A DNA stretch of 64,000 nt from Candidatus Nomurabacteria bacterium (GCA_023898585.1 CP060229.1:381912-445911); one strand, 5' to 3'. Positions 3,623 to 54,544 are shown, counted from the first letter of the stretch. Notes: generated by a model from the sequence alone, not told the origin. A program made the numbers and translations.

Positions 3623-4765
3623 TTGCTGGTCTCGAAAGTAAGGCTTGAACAGCGTATACTTAAGGCACGTATTATGTCTTCGGTTCTTTCAAGAATTCTT
3701 CCGCCTCCGGCTTACATAACAATGCCGTCTGTTGGAGTTGATATTTCTGACACTTCTTTAAAATACATCGCTTTCGAACCAACCGTTCGAGAGGGGATTG
3801 ATCGTAAGTTGAAGCTGTGGGGAGACATTTCCATACCAAACGGTATCTTGCAAAGAGGGCAACTCGATAAGCCTGAACAGCTAGTTATCGTGCTCAAGGA
3901 ATTCAAATCAATAACAAAAGCGGAATTTGTCACTGTATCTTTACCGGAAGAGAGAGCTTATTTGTTTGAGACAACAATAAAACGTGATGTCCCTCTTAAA
4001 GAAATAAGAAGTTTATTAGAATTTAAGCTGGAGGAGAATGTTCCGATTCCTTCCAAAGATGTAATTTTTGATTATGTAATTATTCCGGGCGATTCCGAGA
4101 CGAGAACGATGCAGATTGCCGTCGCAGCTTATGGTAAAGAAACAGTTTTGAAATATTACGATGCTTGCAAGGAAGCCGGGCTTCGTCCGATCTCCTTTGA
4201 GGTCGAAGCGCAGGCCATGGCTCGCTCAGTCATATCAAATGACATAAGTGGAGCAGTCATGTTGGTGGATTTCGGAAAAACAAGAACCGGCATCGGGATT
4301 GTCTACAAAGGAATTTTACTCTACACTTCCACCATCGATATCGGCGGTGATCAATTATCACAATCGCTACGTAGCATTTTAGGGTCCGATGTGGCTGAAT
4401 CCAGCTTAACTAAAATAAAAAATACGGAAGGTTTGATGCGTGGTGTGGATTCTTCCGATGTTCACGATGCTTTGCTTAGTGTCGTTTCTATCATCAAAGA
4501 CGAACTGATCACCAGAATGCAGTACTGGCATTTGCGCAACGGCAACAGTGAAGAAAGGAGGATAACATCAATTATGATGTGTGGTGGAAGCGCAAATATG
4601 AAGGGTCTGCCTGCATATCTTACCGAAACCATCGGCGTTCCTTGTGTCAGAGGTAATGTCTGGGAGAACACTTTTTCTCTTGATAACAATGTTCCTCCGA
4701 TCGATAAGTGGCATTCTTTCGGGTATGCGACAGCGATCGGTCTAGCGCTTAAAAAATTCGTATGA
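3623..4765 (+). CDS. pilM: type IV pilus assembly protein PilM (actin-like ATPase)
   Basis: Actin-like fold motifs (LVDFGKTRTGIGIV, DIGGDQLSQ). Followed by pilN/pilO-like genes with overlapping stop/start codons. Confidence 0.7.
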   Translation: MLVSKVRLEQRILKARIMSSVLSRILPPPAYITMPSVGVDISDTSLKYIAFEPTVREGIDRKLKLWGDISIPNGILQRGQLDKPEQLVIVLKEFKSITKAEFVTVSLPEERAYLFETTIKRDVPLKEIRSLLEFKLEENVPIPSKDVIFDYVIIPGDSETRTMQIAVAAYGKETVLKYYDACKEAGLRPISFEVEAQAMARSVISNDISGAVMLVDFGKTRTGIGIVYKGILLYTSTIDIGGDQLSQSLRSILGSDVAESSLTKIKNTEGLMRGVDSSDVHDALLSVVSIIKDELITRMQYWHLRNGNSEERRITSIMMCGGSANMKGLPAYLTETIGVPCVRGNVWENTFSLDNNVPPIDKWHSFGYATAIGLALKKFV

Positions 4766-6533: not shown

Positions 6534-7529
6534 ATGCAATCAAACGAAAAACTAGGTTCTGATGAACATCATAAACCAAATGTTATTTTTCGTAATGAAC
6601 CAAAGTTATCTGAGCACGAGATTGACAACGATTTGAATAAAATGCGAACGGAGTTCATGACGTATATCCAGGACTTTGTAACAGAGCACGATTTATTCAA
6701 GAATGAAACAGAGGTAGGCATTGAATTTGCTCAAAAAGGAGTATCTTCTGTAATTGCCATCATTGACACGCCTGCAGGCAAGTGGGTATTAAAAATACCC
6801 CGAAACAAAAGACATACCGTTGGAGAGGGTGAATTTTTTCAGGTGTGGGAGAAAGCTGGGGTTACTGTTCCACAAGTAATTGAAACTGGTGAATTAAATG
6901 ATTCGCCGTATACACTTATGGAATATATAGACGCCCAGACACTTGATACTTGCTACAGTCATGAGGAGCTTTTAGCTAAAGGTACATTCGTTGAGATGGG
7001 AGAAGCTCTTCGGTGTATGCATTCTGAATCTGCTGATGGTTACGGATTTGTTGTTGATGGTAAACCAGAATTTGAGACAGTAGAAGAATGGCTTGAGGGA
7101 GATGACATGAAAAGACGTTTTGATTACATAGATGAGCATAATTTACTTGAAGGAATTGAGGATGAGCTAGATAAAGCTCTGGAAGTAATTAAGCAACACT
7201 CAGAAAATTCTGATAGTACGTATTGCCACGATGATTTTGGAACAGCGAACATCTTCGCAACTGACCCAATAACAATTTTTGACCCTCAACCAAAATTCAA
7301 CAGTGGGTACTATGATTTAGGTAAAATCAATTTTATTAAAATTGCTATGAGTGGTTCGGACGAATCGTTCAAACAGTTACTCGATGGCTACTTTGATGAC
7401 AATGACTGCAACGATGCAGTACTCAATGCTTATACTTTTCTTGCTTTTTGCATGAAGTGTCCGTACTGGCATCGAACAGGAAGACAGGAGCAATTGGAGA
7501 CTGCGAAGAAATACTTTAGAAATTGTTGA
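6534..7529 (+). CDS. phosphotransferase-family kinase (APH/choline-kinase-like)
   Basis: CHDDFGTANIF (Brenner H-x-D...N motif) and a D-x-G-K/DLG segment typical of aminoglycoside/choline kinase fold. Confidence 0.55.
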   Translation: MQSNEKLGSDEHHKPNVIFRNEPKLSEHEIDNDLNKMRTEFMTYIQDFVTEHDLFKNETEVGIEFAQKGVSSVIAIIDTPAGKWVLKIPRNKRHTVGEGEFFQVWEKAGVTVPQVIETGELNDSPYTLMEYIDAQTLDTCYSHEELLAKGTFVEMGEALRCMHSESADGYGFVVDGKPEFETVEEWLEGDDMKRRFDYIDEHNLLEGIEDELDKALEVIKQHSENSDSTYCHDDFGTANIFATDPITIFDPQPKFNSGYYDLGKINFIKIAMSGSDESFKQLLDGYFDDNDCNDAVLNAYTFLAFCMKCPYWHRTGRQEQLETAKKYFRNC

Positions 7530-28678: not shown

Positions 28679-30033
28679 TAAAGGAAAAAGACCGCTCTAC
28701 GAGCGGTCTTTTGTTGTATACTTTTTCTGTGTATAAAAAGTATCTTTTGATATTGGCGTTGGCGGTAGGGTTTATCCCTTACCAAGTTCATGCACTATTG
28801 CCACCTGATTTGGTCGTCAGTGTTGGATCTCAAATAGTCCAGTTTTTCTCGATAGGCGCGGTTGTGGTGGGAGGAGTTTTTTCCAGTTTGGCGTATTGGA
28901 GTCGCCGGTGGTTTTGCTGGTCCAATAAAAAAGTTTGGAAAGTAATTAGCCTTATAGTTTTTATTGTCGTTTGCGCTATTGTTCTGGTTTACGTGGTTGA
29001 GTTAGAGAAACAAAACAATAATTCGCTTAATCAAATGGAAAAACTACAATCGATAAATGCTGGCTTGGAGGAACGACTAGGAAACAGCGTATCACTTGCT
29101 GATTATCAACGACTGGTAGCCGAGCTAAACAAGCAGTCACCCGACTTCAGGCCTGATATATTTTTGTTTGCTACCGGTACACAAAGTTTGGATAAACAGT
29201 TTCATAGTGACAATATCATATTGTATAGAGGAGGTGGTTCTTCTTTTGCGCTGGAGATTGACTTCAATCGGATCGAAGTCAGCCCCGGAGTGTACACTCA
29301 CTACACCTATCTGAACGGAAATATAAATGGAGAAATTATATCTGACTACGATAGTGTCTTTGCCACCACAACAACACTGCAAAAAAATCGATATGTAACA
29401 GAAATCAGTAGGGTTATGGCCGACGATTTGTCTCCCCGAGATAGCTACAAAGTCACTGTACTGGTGAACGGTGACCCGGTTTCATTTGAGATAAAAAATC
29501 TGCAGGGTGATTTTGTGACCAGAAATCATCCTGATTATACTCAACTGCAAAGCGAAGGAACGGCGGAAGTGATTTATAAAGGAGAGAAGTTCGAAGCTCA
29601 GGCATTGGTTGAAAATACTTATGCTAACAACTATACAACCAAGATATTCTTTCCCGGTTACCAGGAGATAGATTCAACCACTCACCAGTTTGTGTTGTGG
29701 GACGAGAATGAAAATTTTTACCTCATAGACATTTCAGAGGTTAGATCCGATACGCCTGAATACCCATCTCATGTTTGGTTACTATACAAATCAGCTTCCG
29801 GCGAGACTATTAAAAAAAGTTTTTCGGCCAGCGTAAGTTCGGTCTCCGATAAGATTGGCAGAGTTTCGTGGTCAGTTTCAGCTCCTGATTTTGAAGGCGC
29901 GATGATAACAGTATCTCCGGTGGTTCCGTTTAAACAAAGTGGCGAGGACAGGATAAGAACTGAAGTAAGTGGTACGATTTACGATAATAACGGCTCCCGT
30001 TCGATCGGGGGAATTCTGCATTTGGTTAAATGA
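28675..30033 (+). CDS. hypothetical membrane-anchored protein (452 aa)
   Basis: N-terminal TM helices. 4-bp overlaps with both neighbours. Confidence 0.5.
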   Translation: MIKEKDRSTSGLLLYTFSVYKKYLLILALAVGFIPYQVHALLPPDLVVSVGSQIVQFFSIGAVVVGGVFSSLAYWSRRWFCWSNKKVWKVISLIVFIVVCAIVLVYVVELEKQNNNSLNQMEKLQSINAGLEERLGNSVSLADYQRLVAELNKQSPDFRPDIFLFATGTQSLDKQFHSDNIILYRGGGSSFALEIDFNRIEVSPGVYTHYTYLNGNINGEIISDYDSVFATTTTLQKNRYVTEISRVMADDLSPRDSYKVTVLVNGDPVSFEIKNLQGDFVTRNHPDYTQLQSEGTAEVIYKGEKFEAQALVENTYANNYTTKIFFPGYQEIDSTTHQFVLWDENENFYLIDISEVRSDTPEYPSHVWLLYKSASGETIKKSFSASVSSVSDKIGRVSWSVSAPDFEGAMITVSPVVPFKQSGEDRIRTEVSGTIYDNNGSRSIGGILHLVK

Positions 30034-32075
30034 CAGCTAGTATGTTTTTGTTACCGGATAAATTCGTTGGCGAAGAAATTGGAATTGGCGCCAAGGCTTT
30101 GCGATTAAATGAACTTAGACAGGCCGGATTTAAAGTCCCCTCATTTGGAGTGATACCAGCCAGAACGGTGGGTGGCTTAGTGTCCAGTTTAAATGATCGA
30201 AAAGTCACCTTATCAAAGTGGTGTGATGAAATAAAAACTTCCGTGCCGGCGGAAGAATACGCCATCCGCTCAGCGTCTTTAATCGAAGACGGAAAAAAAC
30301 ATTCCCAGGCCGGACAATTCAAAACAGTGCTCAAGGTGACAGAGAATCAACTGGGCGAGGCTATAGACAGCGTGATTAACGATTATGTTAAGAAAACCGG
30401 TGGCAAGCACGGCTTCTCAGTTATTGTTCAGGAGTACGTTACTTCAGATTATGCGGGAGTGATTTTTTCCAGAAACCCCATGGGGGGTAGGGAAATGGTT
30501 ATCGAATATTCACAAGAAGGAGGAGAGGTGGTGGTCCGTGGAGAAAAAACTCAAAGGATTGTATTTTCACCATCACAATCAGCCAAACATCAAAGCGAAC
30601 TACCTTTTCTTGCCTTACTGGCAAAACGAACCCTTGATATTGAGTCAATATATGACTGGCCACAAGATATTGAGTGGCTTGTCTCCAATGGTGAGATTCT
30701 TTTCTTACAAACTAGACCGATCACCAATATAAGTGAAAAAGAATGGCAAGGGATAAAATATCTGGAGAAAAAATTCAACAATAGGAAAAGTTTTTACTAC
30801 GAGCGAACAGCGATTTCGGAAACTTTCTACAAACCGTCTCCGCTGGCTTTTTCCATACTACGGTCTATGTATAAGAAGGATGGTCCGATTGAAAAAGCTT
30901 ACCAAAATATCGGAGTAAAATATCTGGCAACGGAACAGTTCGAATTGATTAACGGGGAGTTGTATGTAGACAAGGAAGCTGAGTTGAAATCCTTGTTTCC
31001 GGCCATGAGTTATTTACAGTTTGACTCATCGTTACCGAGGATCGGTTCTTTTTCAGGTTTGTTAACCTCTGTCAAAAACTTTTTAGCATTGTCATTTGTT
31101 TCTGATAAAAACTATTTGATTCTGAAAGAAAAAATTAATAATTTACTAACCGTTTCTCTGGACGAAGAACTTAATTTAAAAGAAAGGTGGAAGTTTTTAA
31201 ATGATAATTACCCGGTTTTGTTTGAGATTAACTTAAAAGCGCAAAGAGCAATCTCGAAGCTAGAGCAGTTGTTAAAGGGTGACAAAGTGCACCTGCCGGC
31301 ATTATTGGCGAGTGATTGGGATGAAGCGTTGGGGAAAGATTTTCCTGATTCTATCTCAGTTGATGATTGGATTGGCAATTCGTTTTCCATAGATGATATT
31401 TCCGATTTTAAACAGGCGAATGCTAATTTTAGCACTGAAAATTCGGGTTTTAGCCGATGGTATCGGTCGTTACCGAAATGGAAAGTGCAAGGATTACAGC
31501 CCTATATCACAAAGGCGAAGAAATACCAATTTTTACGCGAGAGAGTTCGCCGGACTGAAGTCAGACTTATCAGTTACTTAAGAAGGGAAGTTTCGAGAAT
31601 TGCTGACGAGCATTTTCCCGGTGAAACCGATTTGATCAATTTTTTCACTATCGACGAACTGACTACCGAAAATTTTTCCAAGGAGGTTGGTATGAAGCGT
31701 CGGAATAATAACCCTCTCTCAGAAGATGTATCATTACCGTCTTTAGTAGCAAGTTTTTCAATGGCTGAAAGCAATATTGGGAATGTAGGTTTGTCCGAAG
31801 GGGAGGCGGTGGGCAGGCTTGTTTATGTTGATGATATTGAAAATGGTTCCGAGTCGAAAATTCTTTACACCGACATTTTATCACCGGATCTGACGCAATA
31901 TTTTGACCGGATCGAAGGGATCGTTACTAAGCAGGGAGGAATGTTGTCGCACTTGGCGGTGGTGGCAAGAGAAGCGGGGTTGCCGGTGGTAATGACGACA
32001 GAGCCCTTGTCGGCCGGAATGCAGGTAAGGATTGACGGTTCATCAGGCGCTGTTTTTGTTGAAGGAGGGAAGTGA
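30030..32075 (+). CDS. PEP-utilising enzyme family protein (PPDK-N ATP-grasp plus mobile His domain, no PEP/pyruvate TIM-barrel domain)
   Basis: C-terminal GIVTKQGGMLSHLAVVAREAGLPVV swivel-His motif. N-terminal PPDK_N-like region. Confidence 0.65.
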   Translation: MTASMFLLPDKFVGEEIGIGAKALRLNELRQAGFKVPSFGVIPARTVGGLVSSLNDRKVTLSKWCDEIKTSVPAEEYAIRSASLIEDGKKHSQAGQFKTVLKVTENQLGEAIDSVINDYVKKTGGKHGFSVIVQEYVTSDYAGVIFSRNPMGGREMVIEYSQEGGEVVVRGEKTQRIVFSPSQSAKHQSELPFLALLAKRTLDIESIYDWPQDIEWLVSNGEILFLQTRPITNISEKEWQGIKYLEKKFNNRKSFYYERTAISETFYKPSPLAFSILRSMYKKDGPIEKAYQNIGVKYLATEQFELINGELYVDKEAELKSLFPAMSYLQFDSSLPRIGSFSGLLTSVKNFLALSFVSDKNYLILKEKINNLLTVSLDEELNLKERWKFLNDNYPVLFEINLKAQRAISKLEQLLKGDKVHLPALLASDWDEALGKDFPDSISVDDWIGNSFSIDDISDFKQANANFSTENSGFSRWYRSLPKWKVQGLQPYITKAKKYQFLRERVRRTEVRLISYLRREVSRIADEHFPGETDLINFFTIDELTTENFSKEVGMKRRNNNPLSEDVSLPSLVASFSMAESNIGNVGLSEGEAVGRLVYVDDIENGSESKILYTDILSPDLTQYFDRIEGIVTKQGGMLSHLAVVAREAGLPVVMTTEPLSAGMQVRIDGSSGAVFVEGGK

Positions 32076-44748: not shown

Positions 44749-47007
44749 ATGTCAGGTGTAAGTAAATTGAACAACGACAGTAGTCATTTGAATAAGTTAA
44801 AGGAAGCTGCGCTACAGTACGTAAAAGACGGCCACCCCATTGTACCTATGGGCCTCAATGGTGATACAGGGGACTATAAAAGGCCACTAGTAAGGTGGCG
44901 AGATGTAGACGGTCCGGCTCGGACAGAAAAAGCTGTAGAGAGTTTATTTTCCAAGTTTGGCAAACGAATTTTCGGAATCGCAACAATTGTTGAGCGGCAT
45001 ATCCTGGTCGATTTTGATACAGAGGATTCACACAAGTTATTTAGGCTACAACCAGCCCCAACCATTAAAACTGGCAAAGGTAGACACATGTGGTATGCCA
45101 CAACTTCTGTAGTCAAACAGAATGGGCCACTTGACTTGTCTGAACATGAAAAGAGGGACGGTAAAAAATATCAGGTAGAGATTTACACAGAAAAGCGGCT
45201 TGAAATTCTGCCACCCTCTCTACATCACTCTGGTGTGTTGTACGAATGGGAGCTGGACTATACAGATTTCTTAGATTTGTCACCTTTACCTGAAGATTTG
45301 GTCCAATTGTGTGGAATTAAAAAGGAGAAAGTTGGCCAGAAAAAAAGCGACATATTTCAAATCATCTATGAGGGTGAGCGACACAGCAAATTAAAAGAAG
45401 CTTGTTTTTACTTCTTTAATAAGCATAAAGGGAATGGAAAAAAGATAACCAAATCAGTTCTGGCCTGGAACATCGAATATTGTAATCCTCCAATAGATGA
45501 AGGTGAGGTTGGGAACATGGTCGATTGGACTATCAAAAACTTTGATGCACCTGACGGGAAGAAAGACAAAGAACCGAAACAAAGTCAGGCAGTAATTGAG
45601 TATATTGAAGAAAATAAAGCAATTACGCTATTCCACGACCAAGACAAGATTGGTTTTGCTCGCCTCAATTCACAAAAGGGAGTGAATATTCCAATTCACA
45701 GTCAAGAGTTTACTGAGTTTTTATCCCTACTCGCGTATCAATCTGACAAAAGTGTTTTAACGGATTATGTTTGTAAAGAGATTCAGTCAGTTTTACATGC
45801 CAAAGCATTGTATGAGTCTTCCCAGCACGCTCTACAACACCGAGTGTATCAGTCTGGTGAGTGTGAATTTTACTATGACCTCTGCAACGATGCTGGAGAA
45901 GCAGTAAAGATAACAAAAGACGGGTGGACTATTGAATCGGGAGAGAAAATACAGTTTCTTTTTAAGCGCGGTGCTGCAACAGAACAGCCGAGACCAGTTA
46001 AGGGTGGAAACCTAAGACAGTTTCTCGATTTTGTGAATCTCAAAGACGAAGATGAACAGATGTTGTTTTTGTGCACGCTTCCCGTGCGAATGATTCGAGA
46101 TATCGACCAGCCGATCGTTTACATCTACGGCCCAGCTGGAAGTGCAAAAACCACACTGCTTAAACTGACTAAAGACCTGCTTGACCCGTCTCAAGGTGGA
46201 ATTTCAATGCCGGTAAAAAAGCTTGAACACATCACGCCGCTTTTAAATCAGACGTGGGTGTTTGCTAATGACAACATATCTCATATTGGTGACGAGTTGT
46301 CTGACTTCTTTTGTGTAATGGCCACTGGAGCTGAAAGTGCTCGTCGCACCTTGTATAAAGACTCAGAAGTGACAGTGCATCGTGTTAAGAACCCTGCATA
46401 CATGACGGGCATCAACATTGAAGCTAGTAATAGTGACTCACTTAGCAGGTTGTTGATCTTTAAGACTGAAGCGTTGGGTAAGGGGAATCTCAAGAATAAA
46501 AATGATCTTTTTAGAAAATATCAGCAGATGAAACCACAGCTGCTGGGCTCTATTTTTGACACATTAGTAGCAGCTTCGAATGTAAAGCAGGACTTACCAC
46601 AACAGACCGAGTTCCGTATGACTGAATATGCGCTATGGGGCGCTGCATGTGCCGAGGTGCTCGGGTATGGGGCTGAAAATTTTGAAAAGGCTTTACAGAG
46701 AGCAATGAGAGCTCGGGCTTATGACGCCATCCAGTCTTCTAGCGCAGGTCGAGCGCTTTTGAAACACCTCGAAAGCAACCTTTCTTTTGAAGGGACAATG
46801 ACTCAGCTTCTAAAGACACTAAAGGATCTGTATTTTGAGGATGATTTTCATGAAAGATGGGGTGAGACTGTAGCAAACAATCCTGAATCACTAAGCAAGA
46901 AACTGCGTGAACTTGAAAATAGTCTATCAGAGATAGGCATAACCATAGATTTTAAACGAACAGCCACAGAACGATTGATTGTCATAAGTCGAGTAGAGGG
47001 GTTTTAG
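44749..47007 (+). CDS. primase-helicase replication protein (Prim-Pol N-terminal domain plus D5/P4-type P-loop NTPase)
   Basis: Prim-Pol DxD (HILVDFDTED). Walker A GPAGSAKTT in the C-terminal half. 752 aa. Confidence 0.7.
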   Translation: MSGVSKLNNDSSHLNKLKEAALQYVKDGHPIVPMGLNGDTGDYKRPLVRWRDVDGPARTEKAVESLFSKFGKRIFGIATIVERHILVDFDTEDSHKLFRLQPAPTIKTGKGRHMWYATTSVVKQNGPLDLSEHEKRDGKKYQVEIYTEKRLEILPPSLHHSGVLYEWELDYTDFLDLSPLPEDLVQLCGIKKEKVGQKKSDIFQIIYEGERHSKLKEACFYFFNKHKGNGKKITKSVLAWNIEYCNPPIDEGEVGNMVDWTIKNFDAPDGKKDKEPKQSQAVIEYIEENKAITLFHDQDKIGFARLNSQKGVNIPIHSQEFTEFLSLLAYQSDKSVLTDYVCKEIQSVLHAKALYESSQHALQHRVYQSGECEFYYDLCNDAGEAVKITKDGWTIESGEKIQFLFKRGAATEQPRPVKGGNLRQFLDFVNLKDEDEQMLFLCTLPVRMIRDIDQPIVYIYGPAGSAKTTLLKLTKDLLDPSQGGISMPVKKLEHITPLLNQTWVFANDNISHIGDELSDFFCVMATGAESARRTLYKDSEVTVHRVKNPAYMTGINIEASNSDSLSRLLIFKTEALGKGNLKNKNDLFRKYQQMKPQLLGSIFDTLVAASNVKQDLPQQTEFRMTEYALWGAACAEVLGYGAENFEKALQRAMRARAYDAIQSSSAGRALLKHLESNLSFEGTMTQLLKTLKDLYFEDDFHERWGETVANNPESLSKKLRELENSLSEIGITIDFKRTATERLIVISRVEGF

Positions 47008-47019
47008 CATTTTGGCTTA

Positions 47020-47181
47020 TGACCAGCCTCGAAACATTTAAAGAGATTCTTATAGAATGCGGTGTTTCCGTGCCAGAAGAGCAGATCGAAGTGTTTCGTG
47101 ATTTGATTGATGCGCAAGCCGATTTGATTTTAGACTCATGGCTCAAAAGTAAACATGACGGTTGTGACAGTGTAAAATAAA
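47020..47181 (+). CDS. small hypothetical ORF (53 aa) between primase and recombinase
   Basis: Unlisted ORF MTSLETFKEILIECGVSVPEEQIEVFRDLIDAQADLILDSWLKSKHDGCDSVK. Fills the intergenic gap. Confidence 0.3.
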
Positions 47182-47184
47182 CGT

Positions 47185-48933
47185 ATGCAGAAAGAACGGC
47201 CCAGGACATGTCTAGCTAGTGCACGAATCAGTAGCCAACAACAAATGGCTGGTGAGAGTCTTGATGATCAGGTGCGAGTTCTCAAAACTACCGCTGAACA
47301 TAAAGGACTTAAGATACTACCTGACGGTGAGGTAGCCGTTGAGATATTCACTGGTACAAAACGTCGTCCTGTGTACGAACAGCACATTCAGTACATCAAA
47401 GACAATCCGGGCAAGGTTGGTTACTATCTAATTCGATACATTGATCGCTTTACTCGTGGTGGTGCCTCTGTCTATCACGACATGAAAAAAGAACTTTCCG
47501 ATTTGGGAGTGATGCTCATTGATACAAACGGAATCATCCAAGAATCACGGAACATGCCGGAATTGGCTGAGATGGGTTTTGAATATGAGTGGAGTGTCGA
47601 ATCACCAAGTGACATGACTGAGGTGATGATGGCAACAACAGCCAAACAGGAACGCGACACAATTCTAAAAAGAACAATTCCTAAGCAGATTGCTTATACT
47701 CAAAAAGGATTTCAGATAGGTCGCCCTGACGATGGAATGATGAACTATCGTACTCAAGTGGGGACACAGATACGATTTGTGCAGGTCCCCGATCCAGAGC
47801 GCGCTCACTTCATAAGAAAAATATTTGAGCTACGGGCAGAGAATAAACACTCTGATCAAGAGATACTTCATATTGTGAATGAAGACATGGGGTTTCGTAC
47901 TAAAAAATTCCATCGCTGGAATAAAACCCACACAGAGATTATCGGTGAAGGAGGTGGCCACAAGCTTCATATCAAGCAGCTACAGCGCATTTATCAGCGT
48001 TTAGCGTATGCAGGTGTACTTTGCGAGAAATGGACGCACCACAAGCCAATTAAGGCGCAATGGGACGGCTTAGTATCAATTGAGCTATGGAACAAAGCAA
48101 ACCGTGGCAAGATTTTCATTAAGGAGTACGACAATGACCTGTTGGAGATTCTGTACGACTATAAAACCGAGAAGCCCGTCTATCAACGACTTCGATACAA
48201 CCCAGAGTATCCTTTCAAGTGTGTAAGTTGTCCGCAGTGCAACAAGCCACTTAAAGGCAGTGCACCACGCGGGCGCGGCGGAACATACCCACGCTATCAC
48301 TGTGAACGTGGCCACACTTCATTTACGGTCAGTCGGCAACAAATGAATCAGACTGTCGAAGCATTTTTGGACAGTGTCGATTATGACGATGATTATCTGA
48401 AAGTTTTAGAAGAAGTGCTGGTCCGTAAACTACGACAGCGACAGAAAGATATTGTGCAGGAATCAGAGAAGCTAAACGAACGAGTCACTTTATTAAAGAG
48501 CCAACAGAAGCAGGTTCTAGGTACTTTAATCTCAACTGAGAGTCCGACGGTCAAAGTCATGCTTGAGAAAGAATTGGAGACCATTGTTGCTGACATCAAA
48601 AAGGCTGAATCAATTCGTTTCTCTGTCGATCTCACTGAAGGCAATATTACTGAGTTGGTGAGCTACGCACGAAAGATAGTGGAATCACCGAAAAAAGCCT
48701 TGATAGATAAAGACAATCCACTCCGACAGAAGCAGTTATTCAAGCTTTTCTTCGAGGACCTACCAACCTATACAGAATTGGATAGTGGAACCGCTAAAAA
48801 ACGCTTTCTTTTCAATAGGAAATGTATTGTCGAGACCCCTGAAAACAGGGTGTCTAGACAGAAGGGGCGACTACTGGGAATCGAACCCAGATTTCCGGTA
48901 CCACAAACCGGCGTAATAGCCGTTATACAATAG
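47185..48933 (+). CDS. large serine recombinase (resolvase catalytic domain, recombinase domain, zinc ribbon, coiled coil)
   Basis: Catalytic ARISSQQQ (cf. YARVS..Q) and IDRFTRG. Zn-ribbon CVSCPQC...HCERGH. The last ~23 codons overlap tRNA-His on the opposite strand. Confidence 0.75.
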   Translation: MQKERPRTCLASARISSQQQMAGESLDDQVRVLKTTAEHKGLKILPDGEVAVEIFTGTKRRPVYEQHIQYIKDNPGKVGYYLIRYIDRFTRGGASVYHDMKKELSDLGVMLIDTNGIIQESRNMPELAEMGFEYEWSVESPSDMTEVMMATTAKQERDTILKRTIPKQIAYTQKGFQIGRPDDGMMNYRTQVGTQIRFVQVPDPERAHFIRKIFELRAENKHSDQEILHIVNEDMGFRTKKFHRWNKTHTEIIGEGGGHKLHIKQLQRIYQRLAYAGVLCEKWTHHKPIKAQWDGLVSIELWNKANRGKIFIKEYDNDLLEILYDYKTEKPVYQRLRYNPEYPFKCVSCPQCNKPLKGSAPRGRGGTYPRYHCERGHTSFTVSRQQMNQTVEAFLDSVDYDDDYLKVLEEVLVRKLRQRQKDIVQESEKLNERVTLLKSQQKQVLGTLISTESPTVKVMLEKELETIVADIKKAESIRFSVDLTEGNITELVSYARKIVESPKKALIDKDNPLRQKQLFKLFFEDLPTYTELDSGTAKKRFLFNRKCIVETPENRVSRQKGRLLGIEPRFPVPQTGVIAVIQ

Positions 48934-48938
48934 TCGCC
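48866..48938 (-). tRNA. tRNA-His (anticodon GTG) with encoded G-1
   Basis: Manual fold. Extra 5' G pairs with discriminator C. Anticodon loop tTGTGgt. T arm GGGTTCGATTCCC. Confidence 0.75.
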
Positions 48939-49417
48939 ATAAATCGTTCTTTTTCTTTCGAGTAATGATGAACGAGATGGTGGCAATTGTGGCACAACCA
49001 AGCCAAATTTTCAATGCTATTGTTGGAGTGGTTCTCATCAATGTGGTGAACTGCTAATACTCTAGTATCTCCAGAGTTGCATAGTTTACATTTTTTAGGA
49101 GTTTTACCTCGTGAAAGTAAGCTCCGATACGAATGATTACCCGACTTCCAATTAGGGTGCTTTTCTTGAGAGAATTCCCGATTCCTCCACTTTGTTTGGC
49201 AAGACTTGCCACAAAAGAATTTTCCACTTTTTGATCCTTTGAGAGCTTTGGGTGATTTGTATATTTCTTTGTTGCAATAAGAACAGTTTACATATTTACC
49301 AGTTCGAGATGCTTCATGTTGACAGGAGGAAGAACAGTACTTGCCCCAACCTCTCTTTAACCAAGAGGGCTTAGCGTAAAAATCAACCTTACACTTTTCG
49401 CATTGTTTTATAGGCAT
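48923..49417 (-). CDS. HNH endonuclease with N-terminal zinc-finger repeats
   Basis: C-terminal LAVHHIDENHSNNSIENLAWLCHNCH HNH motif. Multiple CxxC pairs. The 3' end overlaps the tRNA-His 5' end by 16 nt. Confidence 0.65.
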   Translation of the reverse strand: MPIKQCEKCKVDFYAKPSWLKRGWGKYCSSSCQHEASRTGKYVNCSYCNKEIYKSPKALKGSKSGKFFCGKSCQTKWRNREFSQEKHPNWKSGNHSYRSLLSRGKTPKKCKLCNSGDTRVLAVHHIDENHSNNSIENLAWLCHNCHHLVHHYSKEKERFMATIV

Positions 49418-49567
49418 AATTCAAGTATAGCAGGTAAGCAAGGCGATTTGCGGTTTAGTTTACAAACCAATGCTCTAACCATTGTTGTAAAACTTGGTTT
49501 TCATTTATTTTCGATAGATGTCGAGTAAGCATTTTTTATACTGGTTTTATAGAGTATAATTATCTCA

Positions 49568-49657
49568 ATGGATCAGACATCATTGTTAGTGGTTTTGTTC
49601 TTTACGCTTATTCTAGGGGCCGGTATCGGTTTTTACGTGGCGAAACTCATTATCTAA
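49568..49657 (+). CDS. candidate small hydrophobic peptide (29 aa)
   Basis: Unlisted ORF MDQTSLLVVLFFTLILGAGIGFYVAKLII, single TM, upstream of mscL. Confidence 0.2.
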   Translation: MDQTSLLVVLFFTLILGAGIGFYVAKLII

Positions 49658-49687
49658 ATAATTTAATTTCATTTAAAATCATTACTT

Positions 49688-50080
49688 ATGAAAGGTTTTA
49701 TTGAGGAATTCAAAGCTTTTGCCGTTAAAGGCAATGTTATAGATTTGGCGGTGGCGGTTGTAATAGGGGCGGCTTTTGGAAAGATCGTCTCTTCCTTAGT
49801 GACTAACATTATTACGCCGTTTATCGGTTTGTTAATGGGGGGGATAGATTTTACCGGATTGGAATACACCATTGGAGATGAAGCGATCACTTATGGTGTC
49901 TTCATTCAGTCAATAGTCGATTTTATAATTGTTGCCATGGTCATTTTCTTGGTTGTTAAAGCGATCAATAAGGCGCAAAATCTTGGTAAGGAAGAGGAAG
50001 AGGAGAAGGAAAAGAAGCCGACTGAACCGGCGGAAGATATTAAATTACTGCGCGAGATTCGCGATATTCTGAAAAAGTAA
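49688..50080 (+). CDS. mscL: large-conductance mechanosensitive channel
   Basis: [27 protein letters not shown]...[12 protein letters not shown] is the canonical MscL. Confidence 0.9.
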
Positions 50081-50102
50081 CTACGGTAGATGAATTAGAA
50101 AA

Positions 50103-50137
50103 ACAGTCGCCGGCCTTTGGCCGGCGACTGTTTTTCC
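50103..50137 (+). terminator. intrinsic terminator after mscL (13-bp stem acagtcgccggcc/ggccggcgactgt plus T5)
   Basis: Perfect stem, loop tttg, ttttt tail. Confidence 0.8.
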
Positions 50138-50324
50138 TTGTCATCCAGAATCTAGATTGGAATAGAAAAATAACCATTTGTATATATTGGCAGGAGTGGA
50201 TTAATGATACGTATTTTGTCATCGTATAAGTTTATCCACAGACTCCGGTTCATAAATTTCAAAAAATCCTTATTCCGGTACCAAAGTGCGATTTGGAAGA
50301 AGTCTTCTTAATGGTAAGATGGAG

Positions 50325-50385
50325 CTATCACACGAGGTTGTCGTGTGTCGGAGGTTAAGACACACGTATTCTTAATTTAAGAATC
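50325..50385 (+). promoter_or_regulatory. nrdBA leader with mutually exclusive hairpins and AT-rich dyad (candidate attenuator / operator)
   Basis: cacacgag(50329-36)/gtcgtgtg(50340-47) versus cgtgtgtc(50342-49)/gacacacg(50359-66). 17-bp perfect palindrome attcttaaTttaagaat at 50368-50384. Confidence 0.35.
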
Positions 50386-50544
50386 AAGTCATAAAGGAGT
50401 TTTCAACGACCGTGTGTTGTCGCTCTTTGATTGCCTTTGGACATAAACGACCATCTCCACCAGAGATGGCAAGTTTTTCCACCGATTATGTTTGAAGGCA
50501 ATAAGCCCTTATAGTTTATTCGTTGACCAAATGTATAGATTGAT

Positions 50545-51858
50545 ATGAAAATCGAGAGTATTCGCAAACGTGATGGATCGATCCAGCCCTTTGACATTAA
50601 AAAGATTGTTAATGCCATCACCAAGGCCCTCAATGAGACAAGGGAAGGTGGTCAGAAAGAGGCGGAAGATGTCGCGGAATTGGCCTATGAAAAAGTTGTC
50701 TCCATGTGTGTTGAGGCAACGGAAGCCGACCCGGAAGATCCGATGGCGCAGAAGTGTATAGATGGCAGTCCTTCAGTGGAAGAAATTCAAGACTTGGTAG
50801 AGCAAGCCTTGATGGAAAAGGACTACTACAATACAGCCAAGGCCTACATCATTTATCGTAATGCGCGTAAGAAAATGCGTGAGCGAGATATCTTTGCAAA
50901 GCGTCAAAATCTCAAACCATACGAATATCCAGAACTGTACGAATATACCGATTCAATTCGCCATTCATATTGGGTACATACTGAGTTTAATTACACTTCC
51001 GACGTACAAGATTTTCACGTTAATGTCACGGAAGCGGAAAGAACCGCTATCAAGCACTCGATGTTGGCGATTGCTCAAATTGAAGTGGCGGTAAAGACAT
51101 TCTGGGGAGACATCTATAAAAAAATGCCCAAGCCTGAGATCGGAGCGGTAGGGGCCACTTTTGCCGAAAGTGAAGTGCGCCACACTGACGCTTATTCACA
51201 TTTGTTGGAGATACTGGGGCTCAATGATGAGTTTACCGATATTAAAGATATCCCGGTCATTCAAAAACGAATGGATTATCTCGAAAAGGTCATTGATTTG
51301 TCACGCACGGAGGAAGATAAGCAGTATGCTCACTCAATGCTACTTTTTTCGCTTTTCATCGAACATGTTTCTTTGTTTTCACAATTCCTGATTATGATGT
51401 CGTTTAATAAGCATAAAAACTTGTTCAAAGGCATCAGCAACGCGGTTGAAGCCACTTCGAAGGAGGAACAAATTCACGGCATGTTTGGCATTGATGTCAT
51501 CAACATCATAAAAGAAGAGCACCCTGAGTGGTTTGACGATGAATGCAAAGAACTGATTGTGAAGTCCTGCGAAGAAGCCTACGAAGCCGAGTGTAAGATC
51601 GTGGACTGGATTTTTGAAGATGGGGAATTGGACTTCTTACCGGCTACTAACGTGAAAGAGTTTATAAAAAATCGCTTGAATAACTCACTCGCTTCGATCG
51701 GTCTGCCTCGAATATTTGAAGTTAGTGAAGCCTTGCTTGAAGAAACCGACTGGTTTGACAACGAAGTGATAGCGACAAAGCACGTAGACTTCTTCAACAA
51801 GCGATCAATAAACTACAACAAACGGTCGTCAAGTGTCACCAGTGACGATTTGTTTTAA
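50545..51858 (+). CDS. nrdB: class I ribonucleotide reductase beta subunit with N-terminal ATP-cone
   Basis: N-terminal ATP-cone (IRKRDGSIQPFDIKKIVNAITKA). Ferritin-like di-iron motifs EVRHTDAYS and EEQIHGMF. Confidence 0.8.
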   Translation: MKIESIRKRDGSIQPFDIKKIVNAITKALNETREGGQKEAEDVAELAYEKVVSMCVEATEADPEDPMAQKCIDGSPSVEEIQDLVEQALMEKDYYNTAKAYIIYRNARKKMRERDIFAKRQNLKPYEYPELYEYTDSIRHSYWVHTEFNYTSDVQDFHVNVTEAERTAIKHSMLAIAQIEVAVKTFWGDIYKKMPKPEIGAVGATFAESEVRHTDAYSHLLEILGLNDEFTDIKDIPVIQKRMDYLEKVIDLSRTEEDKQYAHSMLLFSLFIEHVSLFSQFLIMMSFNKHKNLFKGISNAVEATSKEEQIHGMFGIDVINIIKEEHPEWFDDECKELIVKSCEEAYEAECKIVDWIFEDGELDFLPATNVKEFIKNRLNNSLASIGLPRIFEVSEALLEETDWFDNEVIATKHVDFFNKRSINYNKRSSSVTSDDLF

Positions 51859-51910
51859 ACTATGGGCAAGAGGCAATCATTTTTATAAATTAATCACGAA
51901 TAAAATACTT

Positions 51911-53605
51911 ATGGAACCCTGGTACTGGTTGAACGAAAATAGTCGCGCTTTTCTAGCAAGAGGCTATCTGTCCGAGGGGCAGACCGCCGAAGAACGCATT
52001 CGAGTGATAGCCGACAGAGCCGAACAAATCTTAAACAAAAAAGGTTTTTCGGATAAATTCTACGAGTACATGTCGAAGGGTTGGATCTCGCTCGCTTCAC
52101 CGGTGTGGTCTAATTTCGGTTTGAAAAGAGGTCTGCCTATAAGTTGCTTCGGTTCCTATCTCGACGACAATATGGGAAGCATACTCTTCACCAATGCGGA
52201 AGTGGGGATGATGAGCAAGTACGGAGGCGGTTGCTCCGGCTACTTTGGGGCATTGCGACCGCGCGGAGCGGAAATAGCGGGCGACAATGGTCATTCTTCC
52301 GGTTCCGTGCATTTTATGCAATTGTTCGAAACTTTGATAAATGTTGTTAGCCAGGGTTCGGTGCGACGCGGACATCTGTCCCCCTACTTACCGGCTGAGC
52401 ATCCTGACATCATGGAATTCCTTGATATCGGCACCGAAGGAAATCCGATTCAAATGTTGACACACGGGGTGACAGTAGGGGACGACTGGATGGAAAGCAT
52501 GATAGATGGCGATGAGGCAAAGCGAAAAATTTGGGCGCGAATAATCCAAAGACGGGGCGAAATGGGCTATCCGTATATTATGTTCAGTGATACGGCCAAC
52601 AAGAATACGGTTGATGTCTACAAAGAGAAAAAATTGAAGATCTACGCCAGCAACATGTGTAGCGAGATCATGTTGCCAAGTAAGGAGGATTGGTCGTTTG
52701 TTTGTTGTCTTTCCTCGATCAACTTGCTTCATTACGGTGCTTGGAAAGATACCGATTTGGTTGAGACGATGATTGCTTTTCTCGACTCGGTGATGGAAGA
52801 TTTTATTTTGAAATTGGAAGATTTGCGTGACTCGGGCGACGATGAAAAGAAGAGGGCTTTTGAATTCATGCAAAGAGCGTATAGTTTTGCTAAAGCGAAC
52901 CGCGCTCTCGGGCTCGGTGTTCTTGGCTACCACTCTCTTCTACAATCCAAAAAATTACCGTTTGAAAGTGAGGAGGCGGCCAAGCTAAACGAAGAAGTGT
53001 TCAAACATATTAGGCTCAAAGCTGACATCTCAACTCAGCAGTTGGCGAAAGATTTTGGCGAACCGGAAGTTTTGAAAGGTTACGGCCGTCGTAACACTAC
53101 TCTAATGGCTATTGCCCCGACTACCTCTTCAGCTTTTATTCTCGGTCAGGTCTCGCAGGGAATCGAGCCGATTTGGTCAAATTGCTACATTAAAGACGTG
53201 GCTAAAATGAAGGTGACGATAAAGAATCCGACTTTGAAAATTTTGCTCAAGGAGAAGAAAAAAGACACCAAAGCGACGTGGGACAGCATCCGTGACAATG
53301 ACGGTTCGGTTCAACATCTTGATTTTCTCAGTGATGAAGAAAAAGCGATCTTCCGCACTTTCGGTGAAATCGACCAAGCTAAAATCATCGAACAAGCGGG
53401 AATCAGACAGAAATATATCGATCAAGGCCAGTCACTTAATGTGATGGTACCACCAAACACTCCCGCCAAAGAGATCAATCAACTTTATATCAAAGCCTGG
53501 AAGGAGGGAATCAAGTCGCTTTATTACCAACATAGCCAAAACGCAGCTCAACAAATGGCTCGTAAAAAATTGGCTGAAAAGGACGCCAAGGAAAACGGAA
53601 AGTAG
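51911..53605 (+). CDS. nrdA: class I ribonucleotide reductase alpha subunit lacking ATP-cone
   Basis: Catalytic NMCSEIMLP (cf. NLCxEI) and the C-terminal tail. The start is taken at Met 51911 after the nrdB stop. Confidence 0.8.
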   Translation: MEPWYWLNENSRAFLARGYLSEGQTAEERIRVIADRAEQILNKKGFSDKFYEYMSKGWISLASPVWSNFGLKRGLPISCFGSYLDDNMGSILFTNAEVGMMSKYGGGCSGYFGALRPRGAEIAGDNGHSSGSVHFMQLFETLINVVSQGSVRRGHLSPYLPAEHPDIMEFLDIGTEGNPIQMLTHGVTVGDDWMESMIDGDEAKRKIWARIIQRRGEMGYPYIMFSDTANKNTVDVYKEKKLKIYASNMCSEIMLPSKEDWSFVCCLSSINLLHYGAWKDTDLVETMIAFLDSVMEDFILKLEDLRDSGDDEKKRAFEFMQRAYSFAKANRALGLGVLGYHSLLQSKKLPFESEEAAKLNEEVFKHIRLKADISTQQLAKDFGEPEVLKGYGRRNTTLMAIAPTTSSAFILGQVSQGIEPIWSNCYIKDVAKMKVTIKNPTLKILLKEKKKDTKATWDSIRDNDGSVQHLDFLSDEEKAIFRTFGEIDQAKIIEQAGIRQKYIDQGQSLNVMVPPNTPAKEINQLYIKAWKEGIKSLYYQHSQNAAQQMARKKLAEKDAKENGK

Positions 53606-53619
53606 GCGAGGAGGATGTT

Positions 53620-53685
53620 ATGACAATTTTGAATGTTTGTCATTGTAGAGCACATCTGAAAACACCATACAACCGAGAAGTATGA
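53620..53685 (+). CDS. candidate small ORF (21 aa, MTILNVCHCRAHLKTPYNREV) with strong SD
   Basis: AGGCGAGGAGG lies 5-8 nt upstream of the ATG. CHC..H residues. Confidence 0.3.
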   Translation: MTILNVCHCRAHLKTPYNREV

Positions 53686-53843
53686 TTGTGTGACACTGCA
53701 ACAAAACAAGAGCATGTCTTCAAAAACCACAATTTCAAGGCGTCAAATCGAGGTACGTGAGACGTGTATGGATATACTGTGAACATATCTAGATGCAGAC
53801 AACGCAGAAATTGAGGGTTTTGGAACATGCTCTAGAGTTAGGG

Positions 53844-53870
53844 ACGGGCACGACCGTAGGTCGTGCCCGT
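53844..53870 (+). terminator. hairpin acgggcacgacc/ggtcgtgcccgt (12-bp stem) plus T-rich tail after the nrd operon
   Basis: Perfect 12-bp stem, loop gta, then tgcttttcc. Confidence 0.65.
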
Positions 53871-53905
53871 TGCTTTTCCAGGCAAGAAGACTAAAATAAA
53901 ATTCT

Positions 53906-54292
53906 ATGAAACAAGACATACAAAAGATCATAAAAGACTTTAAATCAGCCACATTAGCAACCACCGGTCCCAATGGATTGAATGTGGTGCCGATCTCGGT
54001 GGTCGAAGTGTGTGGGGAAGAAATACATCTTTACGATTTCTTTATGAGAAAAACGGCTGAGAATGTAAAGGCGGAGCCGAGGGTCGCTTTTGCTTGTTGG
54101 CATGATTTTGTCGGTTTGCAGATAAAGGCTGACGCTGTTTATGAGACTGAAGGAGAGGATTTTGAGAGAGCTGTCGCGGAGATGAAAAAACGTTTTCCGG
54201 ACAGGACTCTTAGTGGCCTTATTAAACTTACTCCGGTTGAGATCTATGACGTAGCGCCTGAGGCTAGCGCTGATAATATTTTGAGCGCTTGA
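53906..54292 (+). CDS. pyridoxamine 5'-phosphate oxidase-like FMN-binding split-barrel protein
   Basis: ~128 aa with SATLATTGPNGLNVVPISVV, typical of the PNPOx-like family. Confidence 0.6.
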   Translation: MKQDIQKIIKDFKSATLATTGPNGLNVVPISVVEVCGEEIHLYDFFMRKTAENVKAEPRVAFACWHDFVGLQIKADAVYETEGEDFERAVAEMKKRFPDRTLSGLIKLTPVEIYDVAPEASADNILSA

Positions 54293-54307
54293 GTAATCGA
54301 GCTAATC

Positions 54308-54346
54308 GTCCTATCGGGTAGGTGCGAAGCACCTACCCGATAGGAC
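54308..54346 (+). terminator. 18-bp perfect-stem hairpin (gtcctatcgggtaggtgc / gcacctacccgataggac, loop gaa) plus ttt
   Basis: Seen directly. Follows the PNPOx-like gene. Confidence 0.75.
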
Positions 54347-54544
54347 TTTACCTAGCGGTTTTTTGTACAATCAAAGTGCTAATTTTTTATAACCTTAACT
54401 TGTCGCATCAAAAGTGCCCTTTCTAACCCAAATTTTAGAAACTGTTGAAATCTTTTCTTGCGTAAGTGTCAGATAGGGTATAGTAAAAGCACGTAGGGGC
54501 ACCATGCCCTTGCGGACATGTTTCTATTATGAGCTTCGGCTCTG

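Follow-up and report, generated by a model that had tools for sequence, protein, structure and literature searches.

What controls the ribonucleotide reductase (RNR) operon nrdBA in Patescibacteria, and does the long spacer ahead of nrdB take part in that control? The question is raised by a 64,000-nucleotide stretch of CP060229.1 (positions 381912-445911, deposited as Candidatus Nomurabacteria bacterium; hereafter the window), in which nrdB and nrdA lie on the + strand behind a leader that an earlier reading of the sequence alone (the sequence-only reading) had taken for an attenuator or an NrdR-like repressor site. We found that this leader is a real RNA element of nrdBA, apparently undescribed and specific to the clade, and from sequence comparison we put the probability that it is a sensing cis-regulatory RNA, counting riboswitches and protein-binding operators together, at roughly 0.55. 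In Patescibacteria genomes are tiny, recognizable regulators are few, and RNA regulation has hardly been studied; a covarying RNA of ~180 nt that is exclusive to the only operon producing deoxynucleoside triphosphates (dNTPs), and that has no Rfam family, is a candidate orphan riboswitch or RNA operator. The leader RNA can be synthesized and probed in vitro without culturing the host, and, for the genetic toolkits under construction in this phylum, it is a regulatory part of natural origin.

Distribution and novelty of the nrdBA leader

Using iterated nhmmer searches of 81 upstream regions (80 related loci that we fetched, plus the window), we recovered the 5' element of the leader in 65 regions and a second conserved block in 47. 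A metagenome scan with a 20-nt pattern taken from the core of one of its hairpins (P2, described below) added 51 more loci, and nrdB lay 120-310 nt downstream in 45 of the 45 that had enough sequence. In all, ~100 related loci have the leader, in every case immediately 5' of nrdB. A covariance model trained on 43 leaders gave one match in the window (50325-50504, 108.6 bits, E-value 1.5e-22), the next best scoring 11 bits, and its + strand matches in 712 kb of loci were located just upstream of nrdB only. Relatives with an NrdB of ≤67% identity do without the leader; the region upstream of their nrdB is short and AT-rich, and its promoter is near the ATG.

When searched against Rfam 15, the region 49000-54500 returned no match at E ≤ 1, and the matches over 50130-50560 were at chance level (E-values of 8-10). 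The Rfam covariance models for cobalamin and purine/2'-deoxyguanosine riboswitches likewise gave no match at the locus, in agreement with the earlier statement that a cobalamin riboswitch is absent here. Full-text literature searches did not find a description of a Patescibacteria nrd leader or riboswitch. Cobalamin riboswitches precede nrd operons, and a 2'-deoxyguanosine riboswitch precedes RNR genes in Mesoplasma florum. The leader shares with these a structured 5' region dedicated to an RNR operon, with covarying stems and invariant unpaired nucleotides; it differs from them in having no Rfam match, another architecture, and no expression platform that we could identify.

Architecture of the leader

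The structured RNA begins directly 3' of the -10 element and extends to ~50504, on the + strand throughout. Its 5'-terminal hairpin, P1 (50329-50347), is formed by CACACGA (50329-35) and TCGTGTG (50341-47) around the loop GGTTG; elsewhere the P1 stems differ, e.g., CACUCG/CGAGUG, CGCACG/CGUGUG and AAGAGAAG/CUUCUCUU. The P2 hairpin (50342-50366) has the arms CGTGTGTC (50342-49) and GACACACG (50359-66) and the loop GGAGGTTAA, which as RNA (GGAGGUUAA) displays GGAGGU(A)A. Both stem and loop of P2 are nearly invariant across loci, also where P1 does not overlap P2. In the window the two hairpins overlap by 6 nt, with GTGTG common to both, and are mutually exclusive, having fold energies of -9.5 kcal/mol (P1) and -9.4 kcal/mol (P2). 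RNAalifold picked P1 in a 36-locus alignment and P2 in a 43-locus alignment of group 1, to which the window belongs. These stems and the AT dyad that follows them were all found exactly where the sequence-only reading had described them. The competition that it had proposed between the two hairpins holds in the window's group but not in several other lineages, where P1 and P2 are adjacent and do not compete (L049, L052, L053, L059, L063 and L031).

The AT dyad, of 17 bp, is hairpin P3 (50368-50384, ATTCTTAA-T-TTAAGAAT), and at other loci its position is taken by hairpins of unrelated sequence such as GCUC..GAGC or AAACUC..GAGUUU. Next comes the P4 region together with a segment that we call D (CGTGTGTTGTCGC), spanning 50386-50426, with D itself at 50411-50417. 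P4 is a clear hairpin in most loci and a weak one in the window, and after it runs a conserved single-stranded tract, GUGUGUUGUCGC, that contains D. With P1 written as the pairing of segments A and B, and P2 as that of B and C, D is able to pair with A or with C; the minimum-energy fold of the window pairs 50329-43 with 50404-16, and A and D are likewise paired in a consensus fold calculated from 12 close loci.

The 3' part of the leader is the P5/P6 domain (50430-50502). P5 is an interrupted stem of 20 bp (50430-49 with 50483-502) that encloses P6 (50451-69), an apical hairpin of variable sequence, and a 3' bulge at 50474-82, TTTTTCCAC (UUUUUCCAC as RNA), in which CCAC is invariant. The sequence-only reading had mentioned neither this larger domain nor the promoter and the DnaA box described below. 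Invariant nucleotides are thus found unpaired in the GGAGGU loop, the CCAC bulge and the internal loops of P5. Between P5 and the nrdB AUG are ~42 A/U-rich nt in which there is no Shine-Dalgarno (SD) sequence.

Covariation points to a folded RNA

The earlier reading had left open whether the leader structure is conserved in related operons; we found it conserved upstream of orthologous nrdB genes. In the window the leader folds with z = -3.9, better than every dinucleotide shuffle of its sequence. In the 36-locus alignment, P1 and P5 together are 97.6% paired, versus 23-50% when the partners are slid by 1-3 columns, and the observed pairing was reached by none of 500 shuffles. P5 in that alignment has 16 pairs, 11 of which show compensatory double changes, and the pairs with the highest mutual information are all within P5. 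Across the helices of the same alignment we counted 82 G.U/U.G cells versus 6 A.C/C.A cells; the helices therefore form in the + strand transcript rather than in its complement or in duplex DNA. The remaining hairpins P3, P4 and P6 have unrelated sequences at different loci and yet keep their folding, with a mean z of -2.5 for the P3+P4 segment and -3.4 for P6. The loops differ in length as well: 4-20 nt for P1 and 6-12 nt for P2. Variable loops, compensatory changes in the stems and the excess of G.U pairs together point to an RNA rather than a DNA operator. The leader is a covarying, conserved structure of the 5' untranslated region with conserved unpaired nucleotides, and in these structural features it is like riboswitches in general.

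Several further pairings were tried and set aside. Helices C:D and A:D are thermodynamically reasonable; their segments are too invariant to test, and the changes seen in D are uncompensated. The GGAGG loop could pair with CUCCAC in the P1 loop of some lineages or with CUUCCAC in the P5 bulge, and although these partners look plausible by eye they are inconsistent across groups and show no covariation. A pairing of the P5 3' strand (CAAUC) with GAUUG before the AUG fails in loci that have other P5 sequences. A small open reading frame (ORF) after GGAGGU, looked for by eye in a few leaders, is not conserved, its ATG being confined to some of the loop variants.

Possible functions of the leader

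If the leader is a sensing RNA, as we propose, it would respond to an effector by adjusting the translation or the survival of the nrdBA message. This effector would be either a small molecule linked to nucleotide or deoxynucleotide levels, in which case the leader would be a riboswitch, or a protein that recognizes P2. The near-invariant P2 with its GGAGGU loop, the CCAC bulge, the internal loops of P5 and the D tract point to such effector recognition. In the window's lineage the switch could be between P1 (A:B) with C:D and P2 (B:C) with A:D. The narrower proposal of a new riboswitch class binding a nucleotide or deoxynucleotide (e.g., a dNTP, or dATP/ATP) is one that we hold only tentatively and regard as doubtful. 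Were it true, an RNA would have replaced the near-universal NrdR repressor, beside the ATP-cone of NrdB and a DnaA box at the promoter, and Patescibacteria would have RNR feedback apparently without NrdR boxes at this operon.

A number of results weigh against a sensing role. No expression platform was found: no terminator is conserved among 71 leaders, and a duplex search of 101 leaders gave no consistent pairing partner for the start-codon region. Long-range or pseudoknot covariation was not detected, as mutual information with average product correction gave P5 pairs only. Segments A-D and P2 are near-invariant, hence the alternative pairings are without covariation support; D does vary without compensation in some loci, and its pairing with A is not proven. 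The competition of P1 and P2 is absent in several lineages, and being lineage-specific it may not be the ancestral mechanism. The transcription start is predicted from a sequence pattern only, and a promoter-like block farther upstream (50179-92) leaves open a longer transcript. The evidence names no candidate ligand or protein, and a purely constitutive role in stability or ribosome loading fits the same data. We weighed four mutually exclusive readings, which together account for 0.87 of the probability, with the remainder going to something else.

The rival that survives best, unlikely as we judge it, is just this constitutive role: the stems would protect the message from 5'-end-dependent RNases or direct its processing, with P5 as a possible RNase III substrate, while the GGAGGU of the P2 loop would serve as a 30S standby site that helps an SD-less start behind a long leader. 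P1 does lie at the predicted 5' end, and P5 has a length of ~20 bp; the invariant unpaired positions (the CCAC bulge, the P5 internal loops and the D tract) nevertheless exceed what a stabilizer needs. GGAGGU is a perfect and invariant SD core, without a covarying cis partner, in a genome that is nearly free of SD sequences, but it is ~190 nt away from the AUG, and anti-SD pairing does not explain why the P2 stem should be invariant too. The lack of an identified expression platform fits a constitutive leader, while relatives whose NrdB is 66% identical manage without one.

Far less probable is a DNA operator, in which the inverted repeats (CACACGA/TCGTGTG, GTGTGTC/GACACAC and the AT dyad) would bind a dimeric repressor that blocks RNA polymerase. 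The known RNR operator of this type is that of NrdR, two 16-bp palindromic boxes (approximately ACACwAtATaTwGTGT) about 31-32 bp apart at the promoter (Rozman Grinberg et al. 2022, PMC9110341). The ACAC...GTGT half-sites of the leader bear a superficial resemblance to these boxes, their position at +3 to +60 is typical for repressors, and invariant arms such as those of P2 are expected of half-sites. Searching 50000-50545 with the NrdR-box consensus at ≤3 mismatches nevertheless gave no match, and tandem boxes phased by 30-33 bp were absent from nrdB of the window and of every leader-bearing locus (window plus 131 loci). The spacers between the arms vary, as given above for the P1 and P2 loops; the arms change by compensation and by G.U rather than A.C, in a strand-specific way; and the conserved loop GGAGGU is non-palindromic. 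The NrdR-like site of the sequence-only reading is accordingly not upheld, and neither is the AT dyad as an operator, since it is the local P3, whose sequence is not conserved and differs freely between loci. Neither the window nor ~1 Mb of related flanking sequence yielded an nrdR gene when searched with a motif regular expression and with phmmer from an E. coli NrdR query, a weak test in that the phmmer search did not pick up the NrdB ATP-cone either.

One observation on the side of a DNA operator comes from locus L079, a patescibacterial locus without the RNA leader, which has an NrdR-box-like pair over its nrdB promoter (3900-3948; palindromes with 14/16 and 13/16 matches, 33 bp apart). 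This sequence pattern hints that leader and NrdR boxes may be alternatives. In the window, a pair of NrdR-box-like sequences at 30630-30675 (12/16 and 13/16 matches, 30 bp apart) is inside a long ORF (30030-32075) and is probably there by chance.

Least probable of all is a classical attenuator, the other option named in the sequence-only reading. Here A, B, C and D would form 1:2, 2:3 and 3:4 alternatives deciding termination at the 50451-69 hairpin and its U-run. Four segments with alternative pairings are present, and the window does have a hairpin resembling a terminator, with 5 T in a row (50451-50480). This candidate intrinsic terminator was rejected as being P6 within the covarying P5; a U-run of ≥5 follows P6 in only 2 of 71 leaders (runs are ≤2 in 60 of them), and D is not adjacent to the hairpin. 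A conserved leader peptide was not seen when the window and a few other leaders were inspected by eye, ORFs not having been scanned for systematically.

Returning to the sensing RNA, we compared it with NrdR as a system. Both are RNR-specific elements at or just after the transcription start, and by analogy the leader would be expected to report the dATP/ATP state as NrdR does. The leader differs in having neither 16-bp AT-centered palindromes nor a pair of boxes three helical turns apart, and its conservation pattern is that of a folded RNA. By this analogy its role may be the same, feedback on RNR expression, yet it does not belong to the NrdR system.

The operon encodes a class Id RNR

The genes behind the leader, in beta-then-alpha order on the same strand, are nrdB (50545-51858), whose 437-residue product is the radical-generating subunit and has an ATP-cone at its N terminus, and nrdA (51911-53605), encoding a 564-residue catalytic subunit without one. 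A Pfam search of NrdB found the ATP-cone (PF03477) at residues 5-110 (~50557-50874) with an E-value of 4e-22, followed by Ribonuc_red_sm (PF00268) at residues 120-393 (E-value 6e-62). The same search of the NrdA ORF found no ATP-cone, only a weak Ribonuc_red_lgN match (2e-7) and the barrel domain (5e-93). The placement of the cone on beta instead of alpha, as the sequence-only reading had it, therefore stands; its statement that alpha starts directly in the barrel stands as to the missing cone and falls as to the start, a short all-alpha N-domain preceding the barrel. The nrdA ORF opens at a GTG (51833) within the end of nrdB, and its first ATG is at 51911, which is the likely start rather than the GTG.

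Residues 2-437 of NrdB, cone included, align to PDB 5OLK with an E-value of 1.5e-170; 5OLK is the NrdB with ATP-cone of Leeuwenhoekiella blandensis (PMC5794259). The sole notable difference between the two is a 13-residue insertion in the ATP-cone of the window protein. The best PDB matches to NrdA were the class Id alpha subunits 6DQX (9e-207) and 6DQW (7e-178), and its 564 residues exactly equal the published median length of NrdAi (564 residues; PMC9669993). The arrangement with an ATP-cone on beta was described by Rozman Grinberg et al. in 2018, who counted 93 RefSeq examples, mostly in Flavobacteriales (PMC5794259), and Burnim et al. in 2022 linked it with beta-then-alpha gene order (PMC9669993). 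The operon is thus a class Id RNR of the NrdBi/NrdAi layout, and its protein part is already known. By likeness to L. blandensis, the ATP-cone would act as an ATP/dATP on-off switch on the beta subunit.

The sequence-only reading had called this arrangement documented but rare. Documented it is, but among relatives it is standard: we scored 8000 NrdB candidates, all with E-values of 1e-20 or less, and in the best 120 of these 8000, which we inspected for architecture, every protein had both domains at a length of ~437 residues (a few up to 481), and most bore the name of a Patescibacterium. On this sequence evidence the layout is the norm in the Candidatus Kaiserbacteria/Paceibacteria clade. 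While the protein arrangement adds nothing new in itself, a layout thought rare turns out to be the standard RNR of a large uncultivated clade. Compared with the L. blandensis enzyme, the window operon has the same order of ATP-cone then ferritin-like beta, the same cone-less alpha of ~564 residues and the same beta-then-alpha gene order. It differs in its host (a Patescibacterium here, Flavobacterium there), in the cone insertion, and in that its layout is a rule in its clade and not a rarity. Enzymes of this class are further characterized by inhibition through dATP-induced beta tetramerization and by a Mn2(IV,III) cofactor, both of them putative for the window operon. The window NrdB is matched with 100% identity by a protein annotated as belonging to Candidatus Kaiserbacteria, and the host of the window is a Kaiserbacteria-type Patescibacterium (candidate phyla radiation, CPR).

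Promoter and upstream DNA signals

Ahead of the leader is an extended -10 element, TGGTAAGAT (50312-50320, + strand), with a conserved TGnTAnnnT signature. The TAnnnT part was present in 100 of 101 leaders, in 14 different hexamers, with TGn ahead of it in at least 84; within the hexamer positions 1, 2 and 6 do not vary while the rest are free, and it stands 7-9 nt before segment A of P1. From the fixed positions and constant spacing we therefore take it to be an extended -10 element. The pattern most likely places the transcription start near A50327, ~7 nt past the -10, giving a predicted leader of ~218 nt.

A consensus DnaA box, TTATCCACA, lies ~75 bp upstream of the -10 (50232-50240, + strand) and is the only exact copy in the 64-kb window. 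Of the 81 nrdB upstream regions, 46 have the box on the + strand with a nearly constant offset, and it is invariant in one of our alignments (A1); exact copies in 648 kb of related loci fell within 480 nt before nrdB in 52 cases of 55. Control of nrdAB by DnaA is established in E. coli (PMC8203912). As there, a consensus 9-mer lies in the RNR promoter region and is conserved in orthologous loci; E. coli differs in having three boxes, against a single predicted one here. Judged from its sequence and placement, the box probably makes the nrdBA promoter responsive to replication, in the manner of E. coli nrdAB. One can sketch three layers at which the supply of dNTPs would be controlled: the promoter by DnaA, the transcript by its leader RNA and the enzyme by its ATP-cone.

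Farther upstream is a conserved DNA block, TGTATATATTGGCA (50179-50192, + strand), a candidate factor site or upstream promoter element. The exact sequence TGTATANNTTGGCA is single-copy in the window and was found in 30 loci, one copy per locus, at the same relative position. Between the mscL terminator and the DnaA box we also saw a conserved motif, TTGTCA(T/A), at 50138-50144; this and TGTATANNTTGGCA are two TTGNCAA-type palindromes ~50 bp apart. A consensus RNA structure was not found in the conserved region 50137-50310 (-1.7 kcal/mol versus -32.7 kcal/mol for the leader), and we therefore read it as DNA-level signals.

At the other end of the spacer, ACCAAATGTATAGATTG (50526-50542, before the nrdB ATG) and ACCATTTGTATATATTG (50173-50189, 353 bp upstream) form a direct repeat, and the copy beside the ATG is not conserved among relatives. 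A leaderless promoter right before the nrdB ATG (TGTATAGAT in the window) was considered and rejected, it too not being conserved among relatives. In the window generally, a TAnnnT hexamer stands 4-9 nt before the ATG in 15 of 32 genes versus 3-9 in shifted controls, and an SD-like core in 2 of 32; examples of SD-less genes with the hexamer are at 6534, 12753, 48923-49417 and 57958. These sequence counts suggest that leaderless transcripts are widespread in this organism. With few SD sequences and many apparently leaderless genes, a 218-nt leader displaying a perfect SD core is exceptional here.

Neighboring genes

Upstream of nrdB and on the same strand is mscL (49688-50080; MscL Pfam E-value 1e-43), whose intrinsic terminator (50104-50137, + strand) consists of a GC-rich inverted repeat and a T-run after it. 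The conserved mscL-nrdB spacer of ~410 bp begins with this terminator. The mscL gene is upstream of nrdB in 106 of 131 loci, and the same-strand order mscL-nrdB-nrdA, with ~450 bp between mscL and nrdB, is an unusually stable synteny for genes without a functional relation. Following nrdA are genes for a PNPOx-like protein (53906-54292), an M10 peptidase and a SIMPL protein. The PNPOx-like gene, encoding an FMN-binding fold, adjoins nrdA in 23 loci (including L002, L005, L006, L009 and L068-L080), also in distant relatives without the leader; a role for its product as flavoprotein partner to the Mn-dependent class Id RNR is pure speculation.

On the far side of mscL, 1-5 kb upstream of the nrd locus, are a Prim-Pol gene (44749-47007), a large serine recombinase gene (47185-48933) that at its 3' end overlaps tRNA-His (48864-48937, minus strand), and an HNH endonuclease gene (48923-49417, minus strand). 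The region 44749-49417 looks like an integrative mobile element inserted at tRNA-His.

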